From assembly GCA_938083015.1 (NCBI GenBank), contig CALKCX010000008.1, positions 11,196 through 75,195 on the forward strand: a DNA stretch of 64,000 nucleotides. Reading direction: 5' to 3'. The first letter of the stretch is position 1, and every line of letters begins with the position of its first letter. Below are positions 30,399 through 55,788 of this stretch, piece after piece. Position numbers and translations under genes: made by a program. The DNA is from an uncultured Candidatus Micrarchaeota archaeon. Its GTDB lineage: Archaea > Micrarchaeota > Micrarchaeia > Anstonellales > J096. The notes below the pieces were generated by a model. It made no database searches. It saw nothing but the letters and a program-made list of their open reading frames with translations, and was not told the DNA's origin.

Positions 30399-30779
30399 TC
30401 TATTCTTAATATCCAATGTTCTCTTATCTTGAGAATCTATTTGAATTATATAATTGTCATTATCCAAATATATTTCCAATGTGCATAGTAGATTACTCGT
30501 ATTAATATTATTATAATAGCACCTATCTTTATCGTATACATAAACTTGTTTCACCATTTTTCCATAATTAAGACCGATCTGAGTAAGTAAATCGACTCCA
30601 CATTGATAGATCTTAATTGGATCATCATTTATTACATAAATTAAAATTAGATTTTTCTTATTCACAATATTTGATAGAGAATCTAATACAGAAACGTCTT
30701 TATTAATATCGTAGATATTCCAAAATAAATATATGAATGGTATGAGCAAGCTAATTATTATTTTCCACATATCTTTCAA
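30345..30779 (-). CDS. Small N-terminally anchored Cys-containing protein (144 aa)
   Basis: N-terminal TM. It shares an I-Y-[IV]-I-N-x-x-P-x(3,4)-Q-C-G motif with the upstream 646-aa protein. Confidence 0.55.
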   Translation of the reverse strand: MKDMWKIIISLLIPFIYLFWNIYDINKDVSVLDSLSNIVNKKNLILIYVINDDPIKIYQCGVDLLTQIGLNYGKMVKQVYVYDKDRCYYNNINTSNLLCTLEIYLDNDNYIIQIDSQDKRTLDIKNRLLVINPVKFENCSNLFN

Positions 30780-32691
30780 GATCGCTTATTATGTATTTGC
30801 ATCTGTCCATATCGTTTAAATTTATATATACTTGAATCTGATTAATCGGATGCCCTAATATTATAATACTAGACTTATCCGTAGTAGTTCTTAATATTAA
30901 ACTATTAGCTTCTATCTGTTTACAATCAATCTCTAAATCTCTAGAAGTACATTTGTCGTTGTGTTTAATAAAATAGCTCATGTTTTTTACACAATCCTTT
31001 AATCTTTCTTCTTCAATAATTATAGATCCATTCATAGATTTGATCTCATTGTACATCTTGTATATGTTAATATTAGTTGGAATTAGAGAATAGTAAGCGT
31101 AAATTAGATTTGCTAGGACTAATATTATGTATAGAGAAAACACGTATCTTAATAGCTTTGCTTCGGTCAATACCGTTTTTATTATGTATATAAGAATGAA
31201 TATTAAAGATGATAATAGCAATGCTGTAGATATAGAAAGTACTACTCTTAACAAATCTGGACTAAGATTTACATATCTTGATATGTTTAAGTATACCCAG
31301 TATATGTTTACAAAATACCTTGGTTCAACATCGTCTTTTTTATATCTATTATTTATAAGATCAGTCAAATCTATCGTTTTATTTATTATAATATCTAAAT
31401 TATCGCCTAAAATAGGAGGCGTATATAATTTTATAGTATCATAATACCTTCTCGATATATCTTCATCGTTGGGGTTAATAGTAATATAGACAAAATACTT
31501 GCCTTTTAGCATATCTTCCATTTCTTTTAATTCTAATAATAATTTATTAGCATGTTCGATATTATCTAATAGTCTCTTTTCATAGAATTTGGCCTTATCA
31601 AGATAATAATCAAAATCGGTAACATTTCTATTATCCATCTTATTTTTTAATAGATTAATAGTTTCTCTATAATCTTGATAGTATTTAGTTAGATTTGAAA
31701 ATACTATATTGGCAATTACCTTATTGTATTTATTTGTAACATCATCAACTTTCTCCATTAATAATCTATAGCGAGGAAAAACGTCTTTTATCTTAAGATT
31801 CGTTTCATATATTTCTAATCTTACAGGTGTGTTTAATTGTATACTTTCAATTATATTATTCATATTCAATAATAAATCGGGTTCCATATCTTTGGTCTTA
31901 TTTAAAGCTTGATAAAGCTCAGAAGTATTATGAATTATAGGGAAACATATGTTATAACAGTCTGAACAAGTTCTACTAGTAGCAATTCTAAATCTAGTAT
32001 TCATCATTCTATCTGAAAGGTTTATCAATAATCTTATATCGGATTTTATACTGTTTAGCTCTTCTCTATATCTTGCTAGATCGATATTATCTGATAGTTT
32101 TTTAATAAGTCTTTCTATTATTGGGTCGATATTATAACTTGCATTCATAAAGTCGATTACCTGTGGTTTTACTTCATTAAACAGTCTTGCATCACAATCT
32201 AATGCATTTGGTCTACATATATAATAGGTAAGGCAATGATAATAATCATTCTGACATAATCCGACTTTAGGGATAAGTCCATCTCCAAGAGCTAATCTAC
32301 ATGCAAATTCTTCTACTTTGCCTAGATATTTGTATTTTGGATTAGTTTCATCGTATCTAGATATGTTATAAATCAATATTCGATTTATCAATTCAGTTCT
32401 TTTATCTTTAAGACTATTAAATTCATCTTGTGCCATCTTGGTTATTATATTACTAATAGTTTTATTATCCGTAATTACTTCATTACCACACTGTAAAAGA
32501 GAAGGTATATTGTTAATATACCATATTCTGCATTGTTTTCCATCGACTTGTTTTATTAGATCTTTTATACTAGTATTCTGTTCATTTGGAAGAAGATAAT
32601 CTCTTATACTTCCCCCTAATCCATATGATAATATTAGCGTTATTAATATTAGAAGCATAATTAAAAATTTATATAAAGATTTAAAAATCAT
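30751..32691 (-). CDS. Large Cys-rich, sequon-rich surface/membrane protein (646 aa)
   Basis: N-terminal TM, a long helical ectodomain with many Cys and many NxS/T sites, two TM helices near residues 500-560, and a Cys-containing C-terminal tail. The start is moved to ATG 32691 to avoid overlap with psmA. Confidence 0.6.
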   Translation of the reverse strand: MIFKSLYKFLIMLLILITLILSYGLGGSIRDYLLPNEQNTSIKDLIKQVDGKQCRIWYINNIPSLLQCGNEVITDNKTISNIITKMAQDEFNSLKDKRTELINRILIYNISRYDETNPKYKYLGKVEEFACRLALGDGLIPKVGLCQNDYYHCLTYYICRPNALDCDARLFNEVKPQVIDFMNASYNIDPIIERLIKKLSDNIDLARYREELNSIKSDIRLLINLSDRMMNTRFRIATSRTCSDCYNICFPIIHNTSELYQALNKTKDMEPDLLLNMNNIIESIQLNTPVRLEIYETNLKIKDVFPRYRLLMEKVDDVTNKYNKVIANIVFSNLTKYYQDYRETINLLKNKMDNRNVTDFDYYLDKAKFYEKRLLDNIEHANKLLLELKEMEDMLKGKYFVYITINPNDEDISRRYYDTIKLYTPPILGDNLDIIINKTIDLTDLINNRYKKDDVEPRYFVNIYWVYLNISRYVNLSPDLLRVVLSISTALLLSSLIFILIYIIKTVLTEAKLLRYVFSLYIILVLANLIYAYYSLIPTNINIYKMYNEIKSMNGSIIIEEERLKDCVKNMSYFIKHNDKCTSRDLEIDCKQIEANSLILRTTTDKSSIIILGHPINQIQVYINLNDMDRCKYIISDLERYVENNN

Positions 32692-32709
32692 TCTATCTAT
32701 TAGATTATC

Positions 32710-33399
32710 ATGTATCCTAATACTCCACAACAAGCTTATGATAGGGCAATTACAGTTTTTAGTCCAGACGGTAGATTATTTCAAGTTGAATATGCAAGAG
32801 AAGCTGTTAGAAGAGGCTCACCTAGTGTAGGTGCAGTTTGTAAACAAGGTATTGTAATAGTAGCTGCTAAGAAAATAGAAAACAATTTAGTTGTTAAAGA
32901 TACTATACGTAAAATAGAGGTAATAAATGATAGATTGTTTTTAGCGACAGCAGGACTAGTAGCAGATACAAAGAGAGTATTAGATTATGTAAAAGATCTA
33001 TCAATAAGCTATAGAAATATGTTTAATGAAGATTCTTCACCTATATATATGGTAAAACAACTTTCTAATCTATTCCAAAGCTATACACAATATGGCGGAG
33101 TAAGACCATTTGGTATATCTATTCTTGTAGCTGGTTATCAAGATGATTCACCAGTATTATACGAAATAGATCCTTCTGGTGCTTATACTGGTTATTATGC
33201 AGTAGTCATTGGGGGAAAGAAGAAGGAAATTGAAGGTCAAATCGCCCCTAAATACGATTACAAGATGCCGATATCTAAATTAGAAGATCTTATAATATCT
33301 TCTATAAGATCAGTTGGTGATAAAGACGAATATAACTATCTCGAAGTTCTAATAAGTAAAGGCGGAAAACTTAGCTATGAATTAAAAGAACTAAAATGA
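32710..33399 (+). CDS. psmA: Proteasome alpha subunit
   Basis: YDRAITVFSPDGRLFQVEYAREAV signature. Confidence 0.93.
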   Translation: MYPNTPQQAYDRAITVFSPDGRLFQVEYAREAVRRGSPSVGAVCKQGIVIVAAKKIENNLVVKDTIRKIEVINDRLFLATAGLVADTKRVLDYVKDLSISYRNMFNEDSSPIYMVKQLSNLFQSYTQYGGVRPFGISILVAGYQDDSPVLYEIDPSGAYTGYYAVVIGGKKKEIEGQIAPKYDYKMPISKLEDLIISSIRSVGDKDEYNYLEVLISKGGKLSYELKELK

Positions 33400-37314: not shown

Positions 37315-37694
37315 TGAACCTGTATAGAGACGATATTATAGCTATATATAAAAATCCACTTAAAATGGGCAAACTTCAAGATTATGATCTTGTATTAGAA
37401 GGAGAAAATGGAAGCTGTGGTGATAAAATTAAGATATATATCAAGTTAGACGGGGATAGAATTGATAAAATATCTTTTGAAGGACAAGGGTGTGTTATTA
37501 GCATAGTCTCAACCGATTTATTATTACAATATATTGAAGGTAAGAGTATTATGCAAATTCAAGATATTGAAGAAGAAGATATGTACGTATTAGTTGGTAT
37601 AGATCTATCTGAAAATCCATCTAGGAAGAAGTGTATGATGCTATCCTTAGAGACTTTACGAAAGTTGACAATTCCAAATTCCGATTCTGTTTGA
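37311..37694 (+). CDS. sufU: SufU/IscU-type Fe-S scaffold protein
   Basis: Three-Cys pattern: GSCGDKI, GQGCVIS and RKKCMML. Confidence 0.8.
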   Translation: MMNLYRDDIIAIYKNPLKMGKLQDYDLVLEGENGSCGDKIKIYIKLDGDRIDKISFEGQGCVISIVSTDLLLQYIEGKSIMQIQDIEEEDMYVLVGIDLSENPSRKKCMMLSLETLRKLTIPNSDSV

Positions 37695-38165
37695 TCTAGC
37701 TTTTTGTTCTAATTCTAAACATTGTCCTGTATAGGAATCTCTTGAAGATCTATAATAACAGAATGCAAGTCCTTGCTCTACCATAATCAATCCTAAGACT
37801 TGAGTTTCTGTCATAAATATAGCTAATGTTCTATTGTATTTATCTTTTTTACCATTGGTCTTTACGTATTTTATATTTTTTTCAACAAAATCCATAGCTA
37901 ATCTAGCATAGGTTTCCATACAGCTTTTATTTAAATCGAATTCTTTTACCCATCTATCTTTTTGATTTTTACCTATCTCAGGTGCATCGATAATCATATC
38001 TCTGTAAACAACACCATTTATTTCAACAGTATCTCCGTCTATAATTCTATAATTGTTATTTAAATATACCTTTTCATATACTTCTGTTGATATGAATAAA
38101 ATTGCTATTAATACTATCGTCAATATAAAAACCAGTAATAGAATTAGACCAAGCTCATTTCCCAA
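37656..38165 (-). CDS. Membrane-anchored staphylococcal-nuclease (SNase/thermonuclease) homologue
   Basis: N-terminal TM LILLLVFILTIVLIAILFI, then IIDGDTVEING...YRDMIIDAPEIG...KYNRTLAIF...GLAFCYYR. Confidence 0.75.
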   Translation of the reverse strand: MGNELGLILLLVFILTIVLIAILFISTEVYEKVYLNNNYRIIDGDTVEINGVVYRDMIIDAPEIGKNQKDRWVKEFDLNKSCMETYARLAMDFVEKNIKYVKTNGKKDKYNRTLAIFMTETQVLGLIMVEQGLAFCYYRSSRDSYTGQCLELEQKARSNRIGIWNCQLS

Positions 38166-38728
38166 ATATCTTCACCTATTTTTGCGTAGACTTTAGAATT
38201 TTTCCTATCTATTCCTATTATAGTTGGAAAATTATCAAAATAATAAAACCACCCCATAATTCTTATTATTTCTCCTTCGTGACCTATATTTATCGAACCT
38301 TGGTATTTAGAGCTTAACCAGATAGTAAAAGGGTTTATTTGAATAGGGTAGCCATTTGTCACATTTAAAAAAGCTTCTTTGACTGTCTGATAATAATCTA
38401 ATATCTCGGTTTCATAATTGGCAATTGAAACTCGATAGAGAAGTTTCTTTAATTGTTCTGTCTTTATATCATAAGGTACTAATACACTTATCACCATAGG
38501 ATGCTTTTCATACAATATAACTATTTTTCCATTTCTAGTTTCATAAGATCTAAATCTTTCAAGTATTTCTTCTGGTTTAATTCTAGATAAATGCATTGCG
38601 TATCTTAATTCATTCATACTATTTTTACCATCCGGTATAGGTGTTATCTCTCCTTCTCTCTTTTTTCTTTCAAATTGATATTGTGGTATAGGTTTTAATT
38701 GCCATTGAGGAGGCGTACTAATTCTCAT
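38144..38728 (-). CDS. Hypothetical protein (194 aa)
   Basis: ORF between the secretion-type ATPase and the nuclease. It overlaps the nuclease start by 22 nt. Confidence 0.55.
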   Translation of the reverse strand: MRISTPPQWQLKPIPQYQFERKKREGEITPIPDGKNSMNELRYAMHLSRIKPEEILERFRSYETRNGKIVILYEKHPMVISVLVPYDIKTEQLKKLLYRVSIANYETEILDYYQTVKEAFLNVTNGYPIQINPFTIWLSSKYQGSINIGHEGEIIRIMGWFYYFDNFPTIIGIDRKNSKVYAKIGEDIWEMSLV

Positions 38729-38757
38729 ATTTAATATTATTTAGAATGTTTTAAAAA

Positions 38758-41037
38758 TTATGCTGATTGTTGTTTTAATAATTTTAATTCTAGCTCTACC
38801 ATAGAAGGAAATGCGGCATCGAATATTTTCTGTGCTTCTCCAAAATCCACTTCTCCGAATTCCTGTTCCATATCGTATATTATTTTATTTGCAAAATTAT
38901 TAGTTTTTAAATAGAAATCTAATTTCATCAATTCTTTATTATCGGTAATCTTTGCGGCCTGATATACCTTATATATCACATATCCTTTATAGAATGCCTG
39001 CATTATTAAATCTTCTGGTTTAAGACCGTTATCTTCTGCTCTTTTTTGAATTATAGGTGGAATAAATTCTAAATCTAATTCTTTATACATCTTCGATATA
39101 TCTAATTTATCCCAGTCTTTCTTATTAGCTTCAGGATTTTTTATAAACAAAGCTTTTAATATAGTATCATTTATACTATTTCCTCTTTCTAATTCAAATA
39201 TTTTTTCAAACTTCTTATCTTTTCTATTACTTTCATATTCAAATCCTACTAATCTATAAGTCCTACCTTTTCTTGTGTATTTAATCTTCTTTAGAAATGT
39301 ATACCTATCTGTAGCTAACATAGAACTTGAAGGTATACCGAATACTAATTCCAATCTATCTCTTACATCAGCAAGACTCTCTGCATGTAGATTATACAAT
39401 AAGAAAACTCCTGGTTGTGTATTAAGCAAATTAATTATACCTTGTACATTTGATTTAGATCTTACTTCATTGATTATCAAAGCAGCATCTCCCATTCTTA
39501 GTAATGCATTTGCCATAGCTACTAAATCTAACTCTGCTAAATCTCTATTTAGATGTTCCATATCTAATGAAGCTATCTTAGCAGCACCTATATGGAATCC
39601 CCTTTTTCTATAGGCCCTAACTGGAATTTCCCATATATCTTGTACAGGTATTATTCTTCTTCTAGTACCTATAGCAGCTATCTTAGCAGCAGTAAACGAG
39701 GTCTTACCAACTCCTTTTACTCCTAATACGGCCTCTGAAGATCCATAGGTTACTAGAACATCATCATAACCTGCAAACATAGGTGTCATAGATTGATAAT
39801 AAAGATACTGTGCATATGTGAAAGGTTCTTCTGACATCAATCTTAAAGCTCCTTGTAATTCTCCAAATGTAGCTGGTGGTCTTTGTAAGTGACATCTCAT
39901 AGATGCCCTTGCACTTACTACGTCTACTACTGGTGAATTAGAATCGAATTTCTTACCTTTCTCAGATAATACCATATTCTTAAATGCTCTCTCTAATTGT
40001 TCACGATTATATCTATATAAAGTATGAGTTATACCGAACTCTCTATGATCTAAATATATAGGGGCATTTTCACTATCTATATATATATCTGTAACATTAT
40101 CTCTATCTAATGCTATATTCTCTATAGGTGCACCAAAACCTATTACCCAAGATGCTGTATCTCTCGCCATTAGTAATGCCTGTCTAGGTGTTATTGGAAT
40201 ATTCCTTATCAATGCAGCTTCAAGAAAGAATTGTTTATATTCATTTATCTTATAATTATACAACACATTATAATCTTGATTTATGAAATTCTCTTTAAGC
40301 TGATTAATTATCAATTCTCTTAAAAGAATTCTAAGATCAGGATTTAGCTTTTCAAGTTCAGGTTGTCGAATGTCATATATGTAAATATCTTTTTCAGGAA
40401 TTTCATAGATTTGTACTTCTACTCCATATGGCAAATTATATCTTCCTTCTTTTCTAGTTATCTTAACGGCATCTGATGGTACATCTAACATTACTAAATC
40501 TATGTAATTTAATGTTGATAAATTGACTAAATTTAAGAATGCTTCTTTTACTCCTCCTCTTGCTAGAACAAGATTATAAAATTTAGTGTTTTTCAATTTA
40601 TTTATCATATATTGTAGTGTATTCATGAATACTTCATAACTTTTCATTAGACCTGCTCTATCTGGTAAAGGTTCTCTATAATTTTCTAAGAATCTTACAG
40701 CATCTACCGGATTAGTATAAGATGTAGTTAAAAATCTTTTTACAACTTCAGTTCTTCTAGTATACATAGGGTCTCTCGGATCACCGTATATCTCTTTTTT
40801 TAGATATATCGCCTCTATTTCAGCTAATGTCCTTGCATATTCTACAAGTATTTGAGTACTTTCTTTTGATAATACATAAGTTATCTCTTCTTCGTATATT
40901 ATCTGTTCTACATCATGATCTTGGACAAAACTTACAAGATTTCTAAAATGATAATTTAAGAATTCAGTTGAACCAAACTCAAATGATGCTTTCGATAAAT
41001 CAACATAAGCTTTCTTTCCCTGTGCCACAAGTTCCAT
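38758..41037 (-). CDS. FlaI/VirB11/GspE-superfamily secretion ATPase with large N- and C-terminal extensions (759 aa)
   Basis: Walker A LGVKGVGKTSF, Asp-box-like IIPVQDIWEI, Walker B region AALIINEVRSKSNVQG, and His-box LLYNLHAES. The start is moved to ATG 41037 (MELVAQGKK) because the track N-terminus reads through tRNA-Gly. Confidence 0.75.
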   Translation of the reverse strand: MELVAQGKKAYVDLSKASFEFGSTEFLNYHFRNLVSFVQDHDVEQIIYEEEITYVLSKESTQILVEYARTLAEIEAIYLKKEIYGDPRDPMYTRRTEVVKRFLTTSYTNPVDAVRFLENYREPLPDRAGLMKSYEVFMNTLQYMINKLKNTKFYNLVLARGGVKEAFLNLVNLSTLNYIDLVMLDVPSDAVKITRKEGRYNLPYGVEVQIYEIPEKDIYIYDIRQPELEKLNPDLRILLRELIINQLKENFINQDYNVLYNYKINEYKQFFLEAALIRNIPITPRQALLMARDTASWVIGFGAPIENIALDRDNVTDIYIDSENAPIYLDHREFGITHTLYRYNREQLERAFKNMVLSEKGKKFDSNSPVVDVVSARASMRCHLQRPPATFGELQGALRLMSEEPFTYAQYLYYQSMTPMFAGYDDVLVTYGSSEAVLGVKGVGKTSFTAAKIAAIGTRRRIIPVQDIWEIPVRAYRKRGFHIGAAKIASLDMEHLNRDLAELDLVAMANALLRMGDAALIINEVRSKSNVQGIINLLNTQPGVFLLYNLHAESLADVRDRLELVFGIPSSSMLATDRYTFLKKIKYTRKGRTYRLVGFEYESNRKDKKFEKIFELERGNSINDTILKALFIKNPEANKKDWDKLDISKMYKELDLEFIPPIIQKRAEDNGLKPEDLIMQAFYKGYVIYKVYQAAKITDNKELMKLDFYLKTNNFANKIIYDMEQEFGEVDFGEAQKIFDAAFPSMVELELKLLKQQSA

Positions 41038-41070
41038 AAATAGATAATAGCATATGTATTTTAAAATGTA

Positions 41071-41141
41071 TGCGGCCACCGGGATTCGAACCCGGGTCTT
41101 CAGCTTGGAAGGCTGACATCCTACCACTAGACTATGGCCGC
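41071..41141 (-). tRNA. tRNA-Gly (anticodon UCC)
   Basis: The reverse complement GCGGCCATAGTCTAGTGGTAGGATGTCAGCCTTCCAAGCTGAAGACCCGGGTTCGAATCCCGGTGGCCGCA has anticodon loop CTTCCAA and T-loop TTCGAAT. Confidence 0.93.
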
Positions 41142-41175: not shown

Positions 41176-42459
41176 TTATAATGATTGTTCATACTCTATA
41201 GATGAATTGTAAAACGAGTATTCTTTTAATTCCTGTTGTTTTATGTTTAAATATTCGGCAATTGTAGTTGAATCTATAAAATCTTTTAGATAAGATTTAT
41301 CAGATTGGAAATTTTCTAATACTGCTCCTAAAGAGTTTGGGAATTTTTCTATCTTCTTCTCTTTAAGATCTTTAATAGTCATCAATTTCGGAGATGTCGG
41401 CACTTCATATTCTAAACTAATGCCCTTTTTTATCCCATCATATCCAGCTGCAAGAATTGCTGTTAAAGATAGAAAAGGATGGGCAGAGCTATCAGGAAAT
41501 AACAATGTAATTCCTCCTTGATCTATCTCTATTGCAGCACCAACAGTTTTATTCTTAGAATAACATATGTAAAAGTTCTCATTCATCAATCTTCTATATG
41601 AATTCACATCCGGATTAGTAAATATCATAAGACTAGGAATATGATCTAGTATACCGGCAACGAAATTCTCTTTTTTATCTTGAAAATTACCGCTAATTCT
41701 AATCTCTAATGAATTGCCCTTTTGATAAGGAAATAGATATGGCATATAGCTTATGTTTATATTCAATATAGAACTCATAGCTCCTGAAATATACTTCATG
41801 TCAGCTATAGTAATAGCAGCATTAATAGGATCAGAATAATCTAATACAATTTTGTGCTGTGATATTGAACTAGAATGATAATGAGCTTCTACATCATGAT
41901 TGAACATTTTAAGATTATCAACTAATTGTTTTCTTATATTATTGTAAGCATCTGCAGGATAAGAAGAAAATAGATTCTCATTTTGAGACATAACTCTATT
42001 ATTCCATCTTCCTTCTCTGGTATCTATGTTTATTACAGGTCCTTTATCTTTGGCAATTCTATCTATACTGGTATTTTCTATTACATAATATTCAATAGAA
42101 GGTTGTATTAATACATCTATACCATAGCTTTTTAGAGAATTGATTACTTTTTCTAATCCTGTTAACATATCTGCTTCATAGTATTCGCCATCTAAAACAG
42201 TTATTCTAGATATAAATCTTGCTGAAAAGATATACCATGGTATAATCGTGTATGTATTCAAAATAGGTTTTAAGTATACTTGTTCACCGAACATCATCTG
42301 TAAATCTCTATTAGAATATCCTACATCTATTAACTCTTGATTTAATCTATTTACATTTATATACACTTCTTTAGTTTCACCAAGTATATTATAGAACTGT
42401 AATACAATATTTTCGATTTTATCATTTTCCAATCTTGTTTTTAAAGTCTCTAAATCCAT
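41176..42459 (-). CDS. Glutamine synthetase-family protein (divergent)
   Basis: GS-like length and layout, with NSYRRL and a catalytic-domain pattern around HYHSSSISQHKI. ATG 42459 is preferred over 42477. Confidence 0.55.
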   Translation of the reverse strand: MDLETLKTRLENDKIENIVLQFYNILGETKEVYINVNRLNQELIDVGYSNRDLQMMFGEQVYLKPILNTYTIIPWYIFSARFISRITVLDGEYYEADMLTGLEKVINSLKSYGIDVLIQPSIEYYVIENTSIDRIAKDKGPVINIDTREGRWNNRVMSQNENLFSSYPADAYNNIRKQLVDNLKMFNHDVEAHYHSSSISQHKIVLDYSDPINAAITIADMKYISGAMSSILNINISYMPYLFPYQKGNSLEIRISGNFQDKKENFVAGILDHIPSLMIFTNPDVNSYRRLMNENFYICYSKNKTVGAAIEIDQGGITLLFPDSSAHPFLSLTAILAAGYDGIKKGISLEYEVPTSPKLMTIKDLKEKKIEKFPNSLGAVLENFQSDKSYLKDFIDSTTIAEYLNIKQQELKEYSFYNSSIEYEQSL

Positions 42460-42509
42460 AGTTAAAATTAAGTACATATGTTTTTAAATAGAAATGTATA
42501 TTAACAATT

Positions 42510-53552: not shown

Positions 53553-55265
53553 ATGTTGTTCATTGATCTATGTAAGATATTGGAAAGAATAGCAGAAGAT
53601 AGGGGAAGACTTAGAATAATAAGCATATTATCAGAATTATTTTCTAATATATCTCCTAATGAAGCAAAAATAGTAAGTTATCTTATAATTGGTCAAATAG
53701 CTCCACCTTATGTAAAATTAGAATTAGGGGTATCGTCGAATACTATTTTAAATGCCTTATCTCAAGTCTCTGGTATAGATAAGACTAAATTAGAAAATAT
53801 GTTAAGACGAGTTGGAGATATCGGAGATCTTACTTATAAAGTTCTTGAAAATAGAAAATTAAGATTATTAGATGAAAACAGATATCTAAGTTTAGATTAC
53901 GTATTTAATATTTTACATAAAATAGCTAGAGATAGTTCAATAAAAGTTAAAACAGATTTATTAGTATCTTTATTTGGTAGAATTTCTAGTTTAGAAGGTA
54001 AGTATTTAGCTAGATTAATTGTAAATAAAACTAGAGTTGCCATAGGTGTTGCAACAGTATTAGATAGTTTAGCTACTGCTAAAAATCTTGATAAAGAACG
54101 TGTAAGAAAAATATACTATATGACATCTGATATAGGTGAAACGACTTATAGAATACTGTCTAATAACCTTGATATTGATATCAATCTTTATCGTCCTATA
54201 CAGCCTGCATTAGCTGAAAGAGTAAAAGATAGTCAAGAGATGTTAGAAAAGTCTCCAGAATTGTTTGTAGAATATAAATACGATGGATTTAGAATACAAT
54301 TGCACAAAGGAGATGATGTAAAAATATTCTCAAGGAAATTAGAAGATATAACTGATCTTCTACCAGAAATTGTCGAAGATTCAAAAAAATATCCAGGTAA
54401 ATTTATAGTTGAAGGTGAGGCCGTTTCTATATTAGATGGAAAACCATTGCCATTTCAAGAGATTATAAAGAGAAAGAGAAAGTATAACATTGATGAGTAC
54501 ATTGATATAATACCAATTCATGTTTATTTATTCGATATATTATATTTAGATGGGCAAAAATTGATAGATCTTCCTTTTCGAGATAGAAGGGCAATATTAG
54601 AAAATTTTGTAAATAATAATTTTAGTAGACTTAAACTTAGTTACGGTAAATACACATCGAGTAAACAAGAGATAGACGATATATTTCAAAGATCAATAGC
54701 TGAACATATGGAAGGAATTATTGGTAAAAAACCAGATGCCCCGTATACTCCTGGTCAGAGAAATCATAATTGGATGAAGTTAAAACATGGTAAAGATACT
54801 ATAGACGCTGTAATAGTAGGCTATTTTTATGGTCAAGGTAGATTAAAAGGTTATCCTGGCTCTTTATTGATATGTGTATATGATGAAGATAATGATGAAT
54901 ATCAAACTATAGCAAAGGTATCTTCTGGATTATCAGAAGAAGAATTAATAGAGCTAAGTAATAAATTAATAGCTACTAATAGACCAGGTATAGGAATTGT
55001 ATCAAACATTGAACCGGATGTATGGGTGGAACCAGATGTTGTAGTAGAAGTAACCTATGATGAAATTACCTTATCGCCAGTACATACATGTGCAAAAGAC
55101 GTATTTAAAAATAGAGGTCTTGCATTAAGATTTCCAAGAATAATTAGAATAAGAGACGATAAGTCTATATATGAGGTAACAAGAGTTTCAGAAATGATAT
55201 CTTTGTATAAATCACAAGGACCAAGGCGACAAGTAGAATTGGAAGAAAAGGAAGAGTCTTTTTAA
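53553..55265 (+). CDS. lig: ATP-dependent DNA ligase
   Basis: Adenylation motif EYKYDGFRIQLH, EGEAV, NWMKLK and LRFPRIIRIRDDK. Confidence 0.93.
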   Translation: MLFIDLCKILERIAEDRGRLRIISILSELFSNISPNEAKIVSYLIIGQIAPPYVKLELGVSSNTILNALSQVSGIDKTKLENMLRRVGDIGDLTYKVLENRKLRLLDENRYLSLDYVFNILHKIARDSSIKVKTDLLVSLFGRISSLEGKYLARLIVNKTRVAIGVATVLDSLATAKNLDKERVRKIYYMTSDIGETTYRILSNNLDIDINLYRPIQPALAERVKDSQEMLEKSPELFVEYKYDGFRIQLHKGDDVKIFSRKLEDITDLLPEIVEDSKKYPGKFIVEGEAVSILDGKPLPFQEIIKRKRKYNIDEYIDIIPIHVYLFDILYLDGQKLIDLPFRDRRAILENFVNNNFSRLKLSYGKYTSSKQEIDDIFQRSIAEHMEGIIGKKPDAPYTPGQRNHNWMKLKHGKDTIDAVIVGYFYGQGRLKGYPGSLLICVYDEDNDEYQTIAKVSSGLSEEELIELSNKLIATNRPGIGIVSNIEPDVWVEPDVVVEVTYDEITLSPVHTCAKDVFKNRGLALRFPRIIRIRDDKSIYEVTRVSEMISLYKSQGPRRQVELEEKEESF

Positions 55266-55788
55266 TAATTACTTGTTTACCAAGATTATTATAAACGTAT
55301 TCTTTATCTATAAGCTTTCCGTCTATGGTAACCTCTCCTATTAGATTATAATCTACTTTTTTAATTTCATATAATTTATCTTTGAATAGAATTATGCCTA
55401 GGTAAGACAATAGAATTGAAAAAAATGGATTTAAAAACATTACAATCAACACAAAAATTGTATAGGAAATACTATAACTAACTGAAATGGCCAATATAGA
55501 AGATATTATAAGAACATCGATAAAATATATGTTAAGATGAATTGCCAATACAGGTAATATTAAGACCTCTGCATCTCCGAATACATTTAATTTATATAGT
55601 AAATAAGCTAATAGAGTATAAATTACAATATATACTAATGAATCTGTTATAAAGGCCTGGTATATACCTATGCCATACATAAACCATACTAAAAAATCAG
55701 GTACATTCTTATTGTTTTTTATATCGTAATATGACAATATGGCCAATATAGATAAGTATATTATACTAAATATATCAAAATTGGACAT
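55165..55788 (-). CDS. Probable A24-family prepilin/preflagellin peptidase
   Basis: Polytopic. The candidate catalytic Asp residues lie in YYDIKNNKNVPD and NVFGDAEVL, about 50 aa apart. Confidence 0.5.
   Translation of the reverse strand: MSNFDIFSIIYLSILAILSYYDIKNNKNVPDFLVWFMYGIGIYQAFITDSLVYIVIYTLLAYLLYKLNVFGDAEVLILPVLAIHLNIYFIDVLIISSILAISVSYSISYTIFVLIVMFLNPFFSILLSYLGIILFKDKLYEIKKVDYNLIGEVTIDGKLIDKEYVYNNLGKQVIIKKTLPFLPILLVALVLVIYTKISFLKLLLPHI

Follow-up and report, generated by a model that had tools for sequence, protein, structure and literature searches.

What is a secretion-type ATPase for when neither a membrane platform nor pilins are encoded beside it? A 64,000-nucleotide stretch (the window) of contig CALKCX010000008.1, from an uncultured Candidatus Micrarchaeota archaeon (Anstonellales), raises this question. 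The source genome measures 518 kb, is 84% complete and has a GC content of about 29%. The gene concerned is the following.

38758-41037, minus strand: orphan PilT-like/T2SSE secretion-superfamily ATPase gene, 759 amino acids (aa), ATG at 41037 (open reading frame, orthologue starts, homology)

With a probability of roughly 0.6, we believe that the product descends from a system-2 type IV filament (T4F) ATPase and is now an orphaned, neofunctionalised hexameric motor, still catalytically competent, with extensions that bind an equally conserved partner. A first-pass annotation of the window had already suggested an atypical motor lacking its cognate partner, and this idea holds: no platform is linked to the gene, and the platform type of its closest relatives is absent from the genome and from almost the whole order. 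We found no description of this ATPase family in the published literature, and it is absent from the 2016 and 2026 T4F surveys.

A diverged relative of the long system-2 ATPases

Assigning the protein to a family is not straightforward. Pfam T2SSE gives no match at E<=0.1, a genome-wide PF00437 search also misses the gene, and a precomputed PF00437 match is present in 3 of 120 orthologues among the matches listed. The best NCBIfam model is TadA (TIGR03819; 1.7e-15, 57 bits, below the cut-off of 373). The FlaI model NF058587 (30.1 bits versus a cut-off of 550) and the VirB11/TrbB models (TIGR02788, 33.9/250; PRK13900, 19.7/389; TIGR02782, 15.6/305 bits) fall below their cut-offs as well. Sequence matches in the PDB are to CpaF (1.3e-8, query residues 266-565), Archaeoglobus GspE (1.4e-6) and FlaI (1.5e-4). 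A Foldseek search with the AlphaFold2 (AF2) model returns afGspE (3.6e-12) and FlaI (1.6e-10), both at probability 1.00 over about 580 aligned columns, with the core at low predicted local distance difference test (pLDDT) values. That model has a mean pLDDT of 71.6; it is good towards both ends (residues 1-300 and 570-759) but poor in the core. Because of these NCBIfam, PDB and Foldseek matches, and despite the missing Pfam match, we assign the protein to the PilT-like secretion ATPase superfamily as a strongly diverged member. No curated threshold for FlaI, VirB11, TrbB or TadA is reached, and automatic labels such as "Flp pilus assembly ATPase TadA" or "VirB11" are unsupported by the family thresholds. 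The position relative to the FlaI, PilB and VirB11 clades is taken from ranks in the hidden Markov model, PDB and Foldseek searches, the tree described below being built without named references for these clades.

The closest likeness is to the long archaeal T4F ATPases of system 2 (Makarova clade 2-type), with which the protein is collinear over its whole length, the N-extension of about 175 aa and the C-terminal tail included. The best matches outside the family are 700-800-aa archaeal ATPases of Altiarchaeales, Hadarchaeales and other Micrarchaeota (e.g. P0137-P0149, P0207, P0265), at 21-24% identity in alignment and 24-31% by genome search. System-2 T4F ATPases have been described with extended N- and C-terminal regions (PMC13705601). 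In the loci of the canonical long ATPases, the ATPase gene is followed by a single two-repeat TadC-like platform of 630-770 aa and then by five to seven small open reading frames (ORFs), in agreement with the published description of system 2 (PMC13705601). The orphan ATPase differs in having neither the large platform nor the small ORFs beside it, and its family differs in its remodelled motifs, a 26-aa insert, a long stem branch and slower later evolution. Some long T4F ATPases of Micrarchaeota reach 1260-1780 aa (P0148, at L095:8001-11864; P0161, P0167, P0226, P0231 and P0264). In P0148 a LAGLIDADG intein splits Walker A (GAGKC...HNTSLL); in the other five an intein is suggested by length and split matches.

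Likeness to better-known motors is more distant. FlaI/ArlI (PDB 4ii7/4ihq) and Archaeoglobus GspE (PDB 2oap) are the best structural matches, over the N-domain and the RecA-like core, and have the same motif order, but identity is only 13-16%, and the orphan ATPase has an extra 178-aa N-domain, a longer C-terminus and no archaellum genes nearby. TadA/CpaF, the motor of the bacterial Tad pilus (PDB 8rkd, 9e24), is the best sequence match among solved structures; however, the orphan protein scores below the TadA cut-off, comes from an archaeon and lacks adjacent TadB/TadC genes. Archaeal secretion-superfamily ATPases that never occur in secretion-system contexts are known, namely the MJ1533-like PIN-ATPase-KH proteins (COG1855; PMC4858521). 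The orphan ATPase likewise stands outside a secretion context, but it has no PIN or KH domain, and the MJ1533-like protein is encoded by a separate gene of the same genome (C10:24055-25479, minus strand, 474 aa). This latter gene, the third T2SSE match in the genome, was considered as a partner system and rejected on account of its identity; with it, a 0.5-Mb genome encodes two secretion-family ATPases that lack a secretion context.

Domain plan

The protein divides into four regions; invariance and mean pairwise identity were computed over 20 diverse members of the family.

40504-41037, minus strand: N-terminal extension, residues 1-178, a small beta-sheet and helical bundle (AF2, pLDDT 93.9, predicted template modelling score 0.88)
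39748-40503, minus strand: FlaI/GspE-type N-terminal domain, residues ~179-430 (aligned to CpaF from 34, afGspE from 134 and FlaI from 141)
39238-39747, minus strand: RecA-like ATPase core, residues ~431-600 (94 of 170 columns invariant among 20 members)
38758-39237, minus strand: C-terminal region, residues 601-759, with beta-hairpin subdomain, insert and helical tail (alignment, AF2 secondary structure)

Mean pairwise identity reaches 83% in the core, 63% in the N-domain, 57% in the N-extension and 52% in the C-terminus. The core had first been described as lying between an N-terminal region of about 450 aa and a C-terminal extension of about 170 aa, and both figures need to be reduced. Because the alignments of FlaI (141-472 to query 317-656) and afGspE (134-377 to query 305-563) reach into residues ~180-430, this region is the ordinary N-domain of archaeal secretion ATPases, which leaves about 178 truly additional residues at the N-terminus. 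At the C-terminus the excess amounts to about 60 aa plus the 26-aa insert. Most of the supposed extensions thus match known FlaI N-domains; the remainder does not, being common instead to the long system-2 pilus ATPases.

The additional N-terminal domain runs collinear to the N-termini of the long T4F ATPases (17-20% identity; alignment A4, which takes in L095 and L096), and 28 of its 178 columns are invariant in the family. A search with its AF2 model found no PDB fold match (best E=0.3); since the model is confident and has no PDB analogue, the fold gives no functional clue. In the C-terminal region, the insert of about 26 aa (~634-660) is specific to the orphan family, and the helical tail ends in a G-x-VD-F/Y..A...W/F motif common to long T4F ATPases. 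Alignment A1 contains members of 805-855 aa (P0036, P0043, P0050, P0104, P0109, P0114) with an acidic/Pro-rich low-complexity linker, which ends in a conserved, basic, amphipathic-looking tail (..SLLEKLREKKK..). This tail recalls a membrane-targeting helix, and the window's protein lacks it.

Distribution and constraint

The family is sharply delimited. An exhaustive homologue search of 1.84 billion representatives at 50% identity yields one full-length 50%-identity cluster at 1102 bits, together with fragments; the next matches are system-2-type ATPases at about 160 bits. In a maximum-likelihood tree, the orphan family forms a clade with 100% support, with a stem of 2.56 substitutions per site and crown branches of 0.1-0.3. 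By this shape, the family changed in a burst and then came under strong constraint. The clade stands beside Hadarchaeales-type long ATPases, a weak sister position (SH-aLRT 82).

We surveyed 201 Micrarchaeota genomes, 68 from the window's GTDB order and 133 from the other orders of the class. Every one of the 68 genomes of the order encodes a full-length orthologue in single copy (41-100% identity, E<=1e-143), as do 11 of the 133 others (families f15, f16, f18, f23 and f24); the remaining genomes give weak paralogue matches only. Constraint can be judged from relatives' loci that carry the ATPase at 85-87% identity (L015, L016 and L017, the last without a downstream flank). The window's ATPase is 85-87% identical to that of either of the two closest relatives. 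In the same genome pairs, housekeeping identities are 60-71% overall: 71% for proteasome alpha (PsmA), 69-71% for SufC, 67-68% for SufS and 66% for IscU. The ATPase is under stronger constraint than proteasome alpha.

Active-site motifs

All four motifs of a complete secretion-ATPase core, as reported in the first-pass annotation, were located in the 759-aa protein.

39697-39723, minus strand: Walker A GVKGVGKTS, residues 439-447, K445 and T446 invariant (20-member alignment)
39625-39651, minus strand: Asp box IPVQDIWEI, residues 463-471, with Q466 at the first acidic position and D467 and E470 kept (alignment)
39457-39489, minus strand: atypical Walker B DAALIINEVRS, residues 517-527, with NE for the usual GE, E524 and R526 invariant (alignment)
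39376-39399, minus strand: His box LYNLHAES, residues 547-554, H551 invariant (alignment)

Each motif has been remodelled relative to the system-2 ATPases. Walker A reads G[SA]RGxGKTS in system 2 and G[VL]KG[VS]GKT[SA] in the orphan family; the Asp box changes from IEDTxEI to [VI]QDIxEI, Walker B from I[IV]GEVR to IINE[VI]RS, the following helix from EAMRVG to INLLNTQPG and the His box from GTIHG to YNLHAE. All these changes are invariant inside the family. The Walker B region, INEVRSKSNVQG (residues 522-533), includes LIINE524VR, which aligns with IIVGEVR of CpaF and afGspE with Asn in place of Gly.

In PilT-like ATPases, complete conservation has been described for the Walker A Lys/Thr, the Mg2+-coordinating Asp-box Glu, the catalytic Glu, two Arg fingers and the His-box His (PMC5424180). 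This universal set is fully retained and invariant in the family: K445/T446, E470, E524, R381/R399 and H551. The predicted arginine fingers R381 and R399, like H551, occupy canonical aligned positions. The Asp box aligns with VVTCEDAAEL in CpaF, VVSIEDTREI in afGspE and IEDTxEI in long T4F ATPases, so that the invariant E470 falls on the second Glu of ED..E in CpaF and afGspE. From its spacing to the catalytic Glu, E470 would be the Mg-coordinating glutamate, and by the same spacing the E-to-Q change at Q466 probably does not affect the Mg ligand. Since the catalytic set is kept and Q466 is not the Mg ligand by spacing, the orphan protein is expected to be an active ATPase.

Platforms, pilins and the search for a partner

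A polytopic platform gene is lacking in the neighbourhood of the ATPase, as first noted, and in the window as a whole, and none is linked to the family in any locus examined; no ArlJ-type platform adjoins the ATPase, as an archaellum context would have. The earlier observation that no pilins lie nearby also stands, pilin-like ORFs not being found in the window neighbourhood, and a crude scan of the window's contig detected no class III signal peptides. A 660-aa membrane protein (30751-32733, minus strand) was considered as a hidden platform and rejected: its T2SSF match is weak (E=0.08) and spurious, it does not meaningfully resemble either the system-2 platforms or those of the source genome, and its topology is that of an N-terminal anchor, a large Cys-containing middle and two C-terminal transmembrane segments.

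The "probable A24 prepilin peptidase" proposed at 55165-55788 (minus strand) is a less clear case. PF01478 does not support it (E=0.32, 11.9 bits versus 26.5) and has no match anywhere in the genome. The expected Asp motifs are present, as a D-x5-VPD motif SYYDIKNNKNVPD and an FGD motif (FGDAEVL), within a polytopic profile. The protein might be a class III signal peptidase that has diverged very far.

Could the gene simply be an ordinary T4F assembly ATPase whose platform, pilins and peptidase are scattered in the genome? T4F genes are often dispersed in Nanobdellati/DPANN (PMC13705601), and all catalytic residues of the orphan ATPase are intact. The search for FlaJ/TadC homologues suggested by the first-pass annotation shows that the genome is not devoid of them: two TadC-type loci lie on another contig, C3. 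However, each comes with its own adjacent ATPase, one set comprising a 491-aa ATPase and two platform genes (268 and 352 aa) and the other a 424-aa ATPase and a 519-aa platform. Furthermore, DPANN archaea normally keep the platform gene next to that of the ATPase or no more than five genes away, and mismatched extension domains hamper T4F cross-complementation (PMC13705601). Together, this norm and this barrier argue against a trivial scattering of the genes. The long stem, the remodelled motifs and a constraint above that of proteasome alpha are also atypical for pilus ATPases.

The platform type that would suit a system-2 ATPase is absent as well. A profile built from eight system-2 platform sequences has no match in the source genome (best E=0.13). 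A two-sequence version (A3), run on the 201 Micrarchaeota genomes, matches 30 of them, and its strong matches fall exactly in the families with canonical long ATPases (f13, f14, f17, f19-22 and f25), within a few kilobases of the long ATPase wherever both were located. In the window's order, the A3 profile has no match in more than 60 genomes, and five sampled genomes matched. In four of these, all of the window's family, the platform stands beside an extra long paralogue. The fifth match, a weak one in G007 (family f5), is a T2SSF-type platform of about 306 aa, about 1.5 kb downstream of an ATPase of about 525 aa. The orphan ATPase and a complete system-2 locus are therefore nearly mutually exclusive across the phylum, the four genomes of the window's family being the exception. 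This near-complementary distribution is consistent with descent of the orphan from a system-2 ATPase that lost its platform and pilins. Both the orphan ATPase and a system-2 locus are missing from families f10, f11 and f12.

Several points weigh against our preferred reading of an orphaned motor with a partner of its own. T2SSF-type platforms occur in 61 of 61 sampled genomes of the order, beside short ATPases where checked, so that the orphan ATPase might work with one of these in trans. At 22 of 80 loci, all of one clade, the opposite strand carries pilin-like genes at a distance of 1-2 kb from the ATPase, which keeps an ordinary pilus role alive. These tandem genes (L033:11806-12604, L063:11774-12142 and 20 further loci) encode N-termini resembling class III signal peptides (RGFASLD..., MQTLEAALSLL...). 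With a genome only 84% complete, a partner gene may be missing from the assembly. The placement of the sister group is weak and open to long-branch artefacts, AF2 models the core with low confidence (pLDDT <50 over residues 454-528), and the assignment of E470 as Mg ligand is based on motif spacing, not on structure. The pilin-like neighbours are nevertheless confined to one clade and lie on the opposite strand, beyond a convergent aminotransferase gene; no homologue of them was detected in the window's genome. Overall, an ordinary assembly ATPase with dispersed partners seems unlikely to us, if by no means negligible.

Bacterial PilT and PilU belong to the same superfamily, and their genes typically stand apart from that of the platform; the two work in trans on a machine that another ATPase has assembled, and they rank with the most conserved proteins of the pilus (cf. 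PMC5424180, PMC6762196). One may imagine the orphan ATPase as a platform-less second motor acting in trans, either in PilT/PilU-like retraction, disassembly or switching of the resident T4F machines, or as the engine of a non-pilus membrane machine peculiar to these host-dependent Micrarchaeota, for example one of host-contact exchange. A role of this kind would explain the orphan state, the order-wide universality and a constraint above that of the proteasome. It would bear on what drives archaeal pilus retraction and, more broadly, on the molecular machines of DPANN symbionts at the host interface. The likeness to PilT/PilU is a functional analogy only: the orphan ATPase has no specific sequence relationship to them, and PilT lacks the long extensions. 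Archaea have moreover been described as lacking PilT-family members (PMC4858521). We regard this idea as speculative and its likelihood as small.

Alternatively, the protein could be a pseudo-ATPase, with catalysis lost or very slow, and act as a nucleotide-sensing scaffold or regulator. The invariant E-to-Q change at the first Asp-box acid, the NE in Walker B, the YNLHAE His box and the failure of Pfam T2SSE to recognise the protein could all be taken in this sense. The retention and invariance of every residue that is completely conserved in PilT-like ATPases speak against it, as does the 83% identity of the core, which argues for a working active site, and we hold a pseudo-ATPase to be very improbable.

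Neighbouring genes

Two further genes follow the ATPase on the same strand.

38144-38728, minus strand: 194-aa fast-evolving ORFan (ORF, homologue search)
37656-38165, minus strand: SNase-family nuclease, 169 aa, with one N-terminal hydrophobic segment (PF00565, E=5.5e-17)

As initially described, the first encodes a protein without predicted transmembrane segments and the second a membrane-anchored nuclease, and neither is a platform. The ATPase had been given the span 38144-41037, of which only 38758-41037 belongs to it; the rest covers the 194-aa gene. A gap of 29 nucleotides (nt), which holds a TATA-like TTTTTAAAA, separates the ATPase stop from the 194-aa gene, and the nuclease gene overlaps the latter by 22 nt.

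The first-pass annotation considered that the ATPase, as a T4P/T2SS-type motor, is possibly tied to nucleic-acid acquisition, in view of the nuclease in the same operon; on this reading it would work with the 194-aa protein and the nuclease. The common strand and short gap favour this, the arrangement is kept in L015 and L016, and nucleotide scavenging by DPANN archaea is plausible. In our comparison of 80 genome loci and metagenome contigs, however, the order of the three genes is kept in only two of the 80 loci, those same relatives at 85-87% ATPase identity, where about 170 nt separate the ATPase from a 194-aa-like gene and a nuclease gene that abut or overlap. All more distant members have unrelated housekeeping neighbours. 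The 194-aa protein finds only itself among 5.8 billion proteins, its positional counterpart in L015 being 25% identical over 122 aa. Evolutionary rates are also discordant, about tenfold apart: against 87% for the ATPase, the downstream genes show 25-41% identity in the same genome pairs (35-41% for the nuclease, 25% or less for the 194-aa protein). All sampled genomes of the order have the ATPase, but not all have it linked to the nuclease, and a TATA-like motif precedes the 194-aa gene. Because the linkage is not conserved, a nuclease-coupled motor is largely refuted, and we give it almost no credence.

We conclude that the 194-aa and nuclease genes probably form a separate, fast-evolving, genus-level two-gene module outside the ATPase system. 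The pair might represent a nuclease and its dedicated inhibitor or chaperone, or else serve in nucleotide scavenging. This case warns against reading the function of an ATPase from a neighbouring nuclease.

Across the loci and contigs compared, no gene next to the ATPase is conserved between clades. One large clade shows the order secF-secD, zero to two Ser/Thr kinase genes, the ATPase, a convergent aminotransferase gene and the opposite-strand pilin-like tandem; SecD is present in 28 of the 80 loci, and a kinase and the pilin-like genes in 22 each. In other clades, the ATPase adjoins a PP-loop/Asn-synthase-like gene, a DRG-type GTPase gene or a DUF192 gene. SecF-SecD, upstream in two of the first three loci, was considered as a partner (an archaeal SecA substitute) and set aside: it is limited to one clade (28/80), at a spacing of about 60 nt to 3.5 kb with kinase genes between, and we take it as synteny, not function.

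Upstream, two features mark the boundary of the ATPase gene.

41071-41141, minus strand: tRNA-Gly(UCC), upstream boundary of the ATPase gene, between a glnA-like gene and the ATPase (ARAGORN)
41057-41066, minus strand: TATA-box-like TTTTAAAATA, about 25 nt upstream of the ATG, directly after the tRNA gene (sequence reading)

The ATG at 41037 is the start position in all 79 orthologues with an intact 5' end. A longer frame of 789 aa with a GTG start was rejected as an artefact, since its first 30 codons read through the tRNA-Gly(UCC) gene. TTTTAAAATA suggests a putative promoter of the ATPase's own and a leaderless mRNA, AT-rich motifs being common at 29% GC, and we conclude that the ATPase is probably transcribed alone. 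The glnA-like gene (41176-42477, minus strand) encodes a glutamine-synthetase-like protein with a PF00120 catalytic domain (4.4e-48) and a sub-threshold match to the N-terminal beta-grasp domain (17 bits versus a cut-off of 33.4).

A motor probably retained without its machine

In the history that we favour, a long system-2 T4F ATPase would have kept its whole domain plan while losing its platform and pilins. The orphan would have passed through a long stem branch of change, followed by extremely slow evolution. It would still be an ATP-hydrolysing hexameric motor, expressed from its own promoter as a single gene, with the adjacent 194-aa/nuclease pair as an independent genus-level module. Its conserved N- and C-terminal extension domains would dock onto an equally conserved partner. 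This partner would most probably be membrane-embedded: either a T4F platform encoded elsewhere and used in trans, or a non-T4F complex.

What makes this ATPase worth attention is the combination of a single-copy, order-universal motor without platform and pilins and a constraint above that of core housekeeping genes, in a 0.5-Mb genome. In a genome of this size, shorn of almost everything dispensable, universality and strong constraint point to a functionally important component. The orphan ATPase thus offers a well-delimited target for structural and interaction studies.

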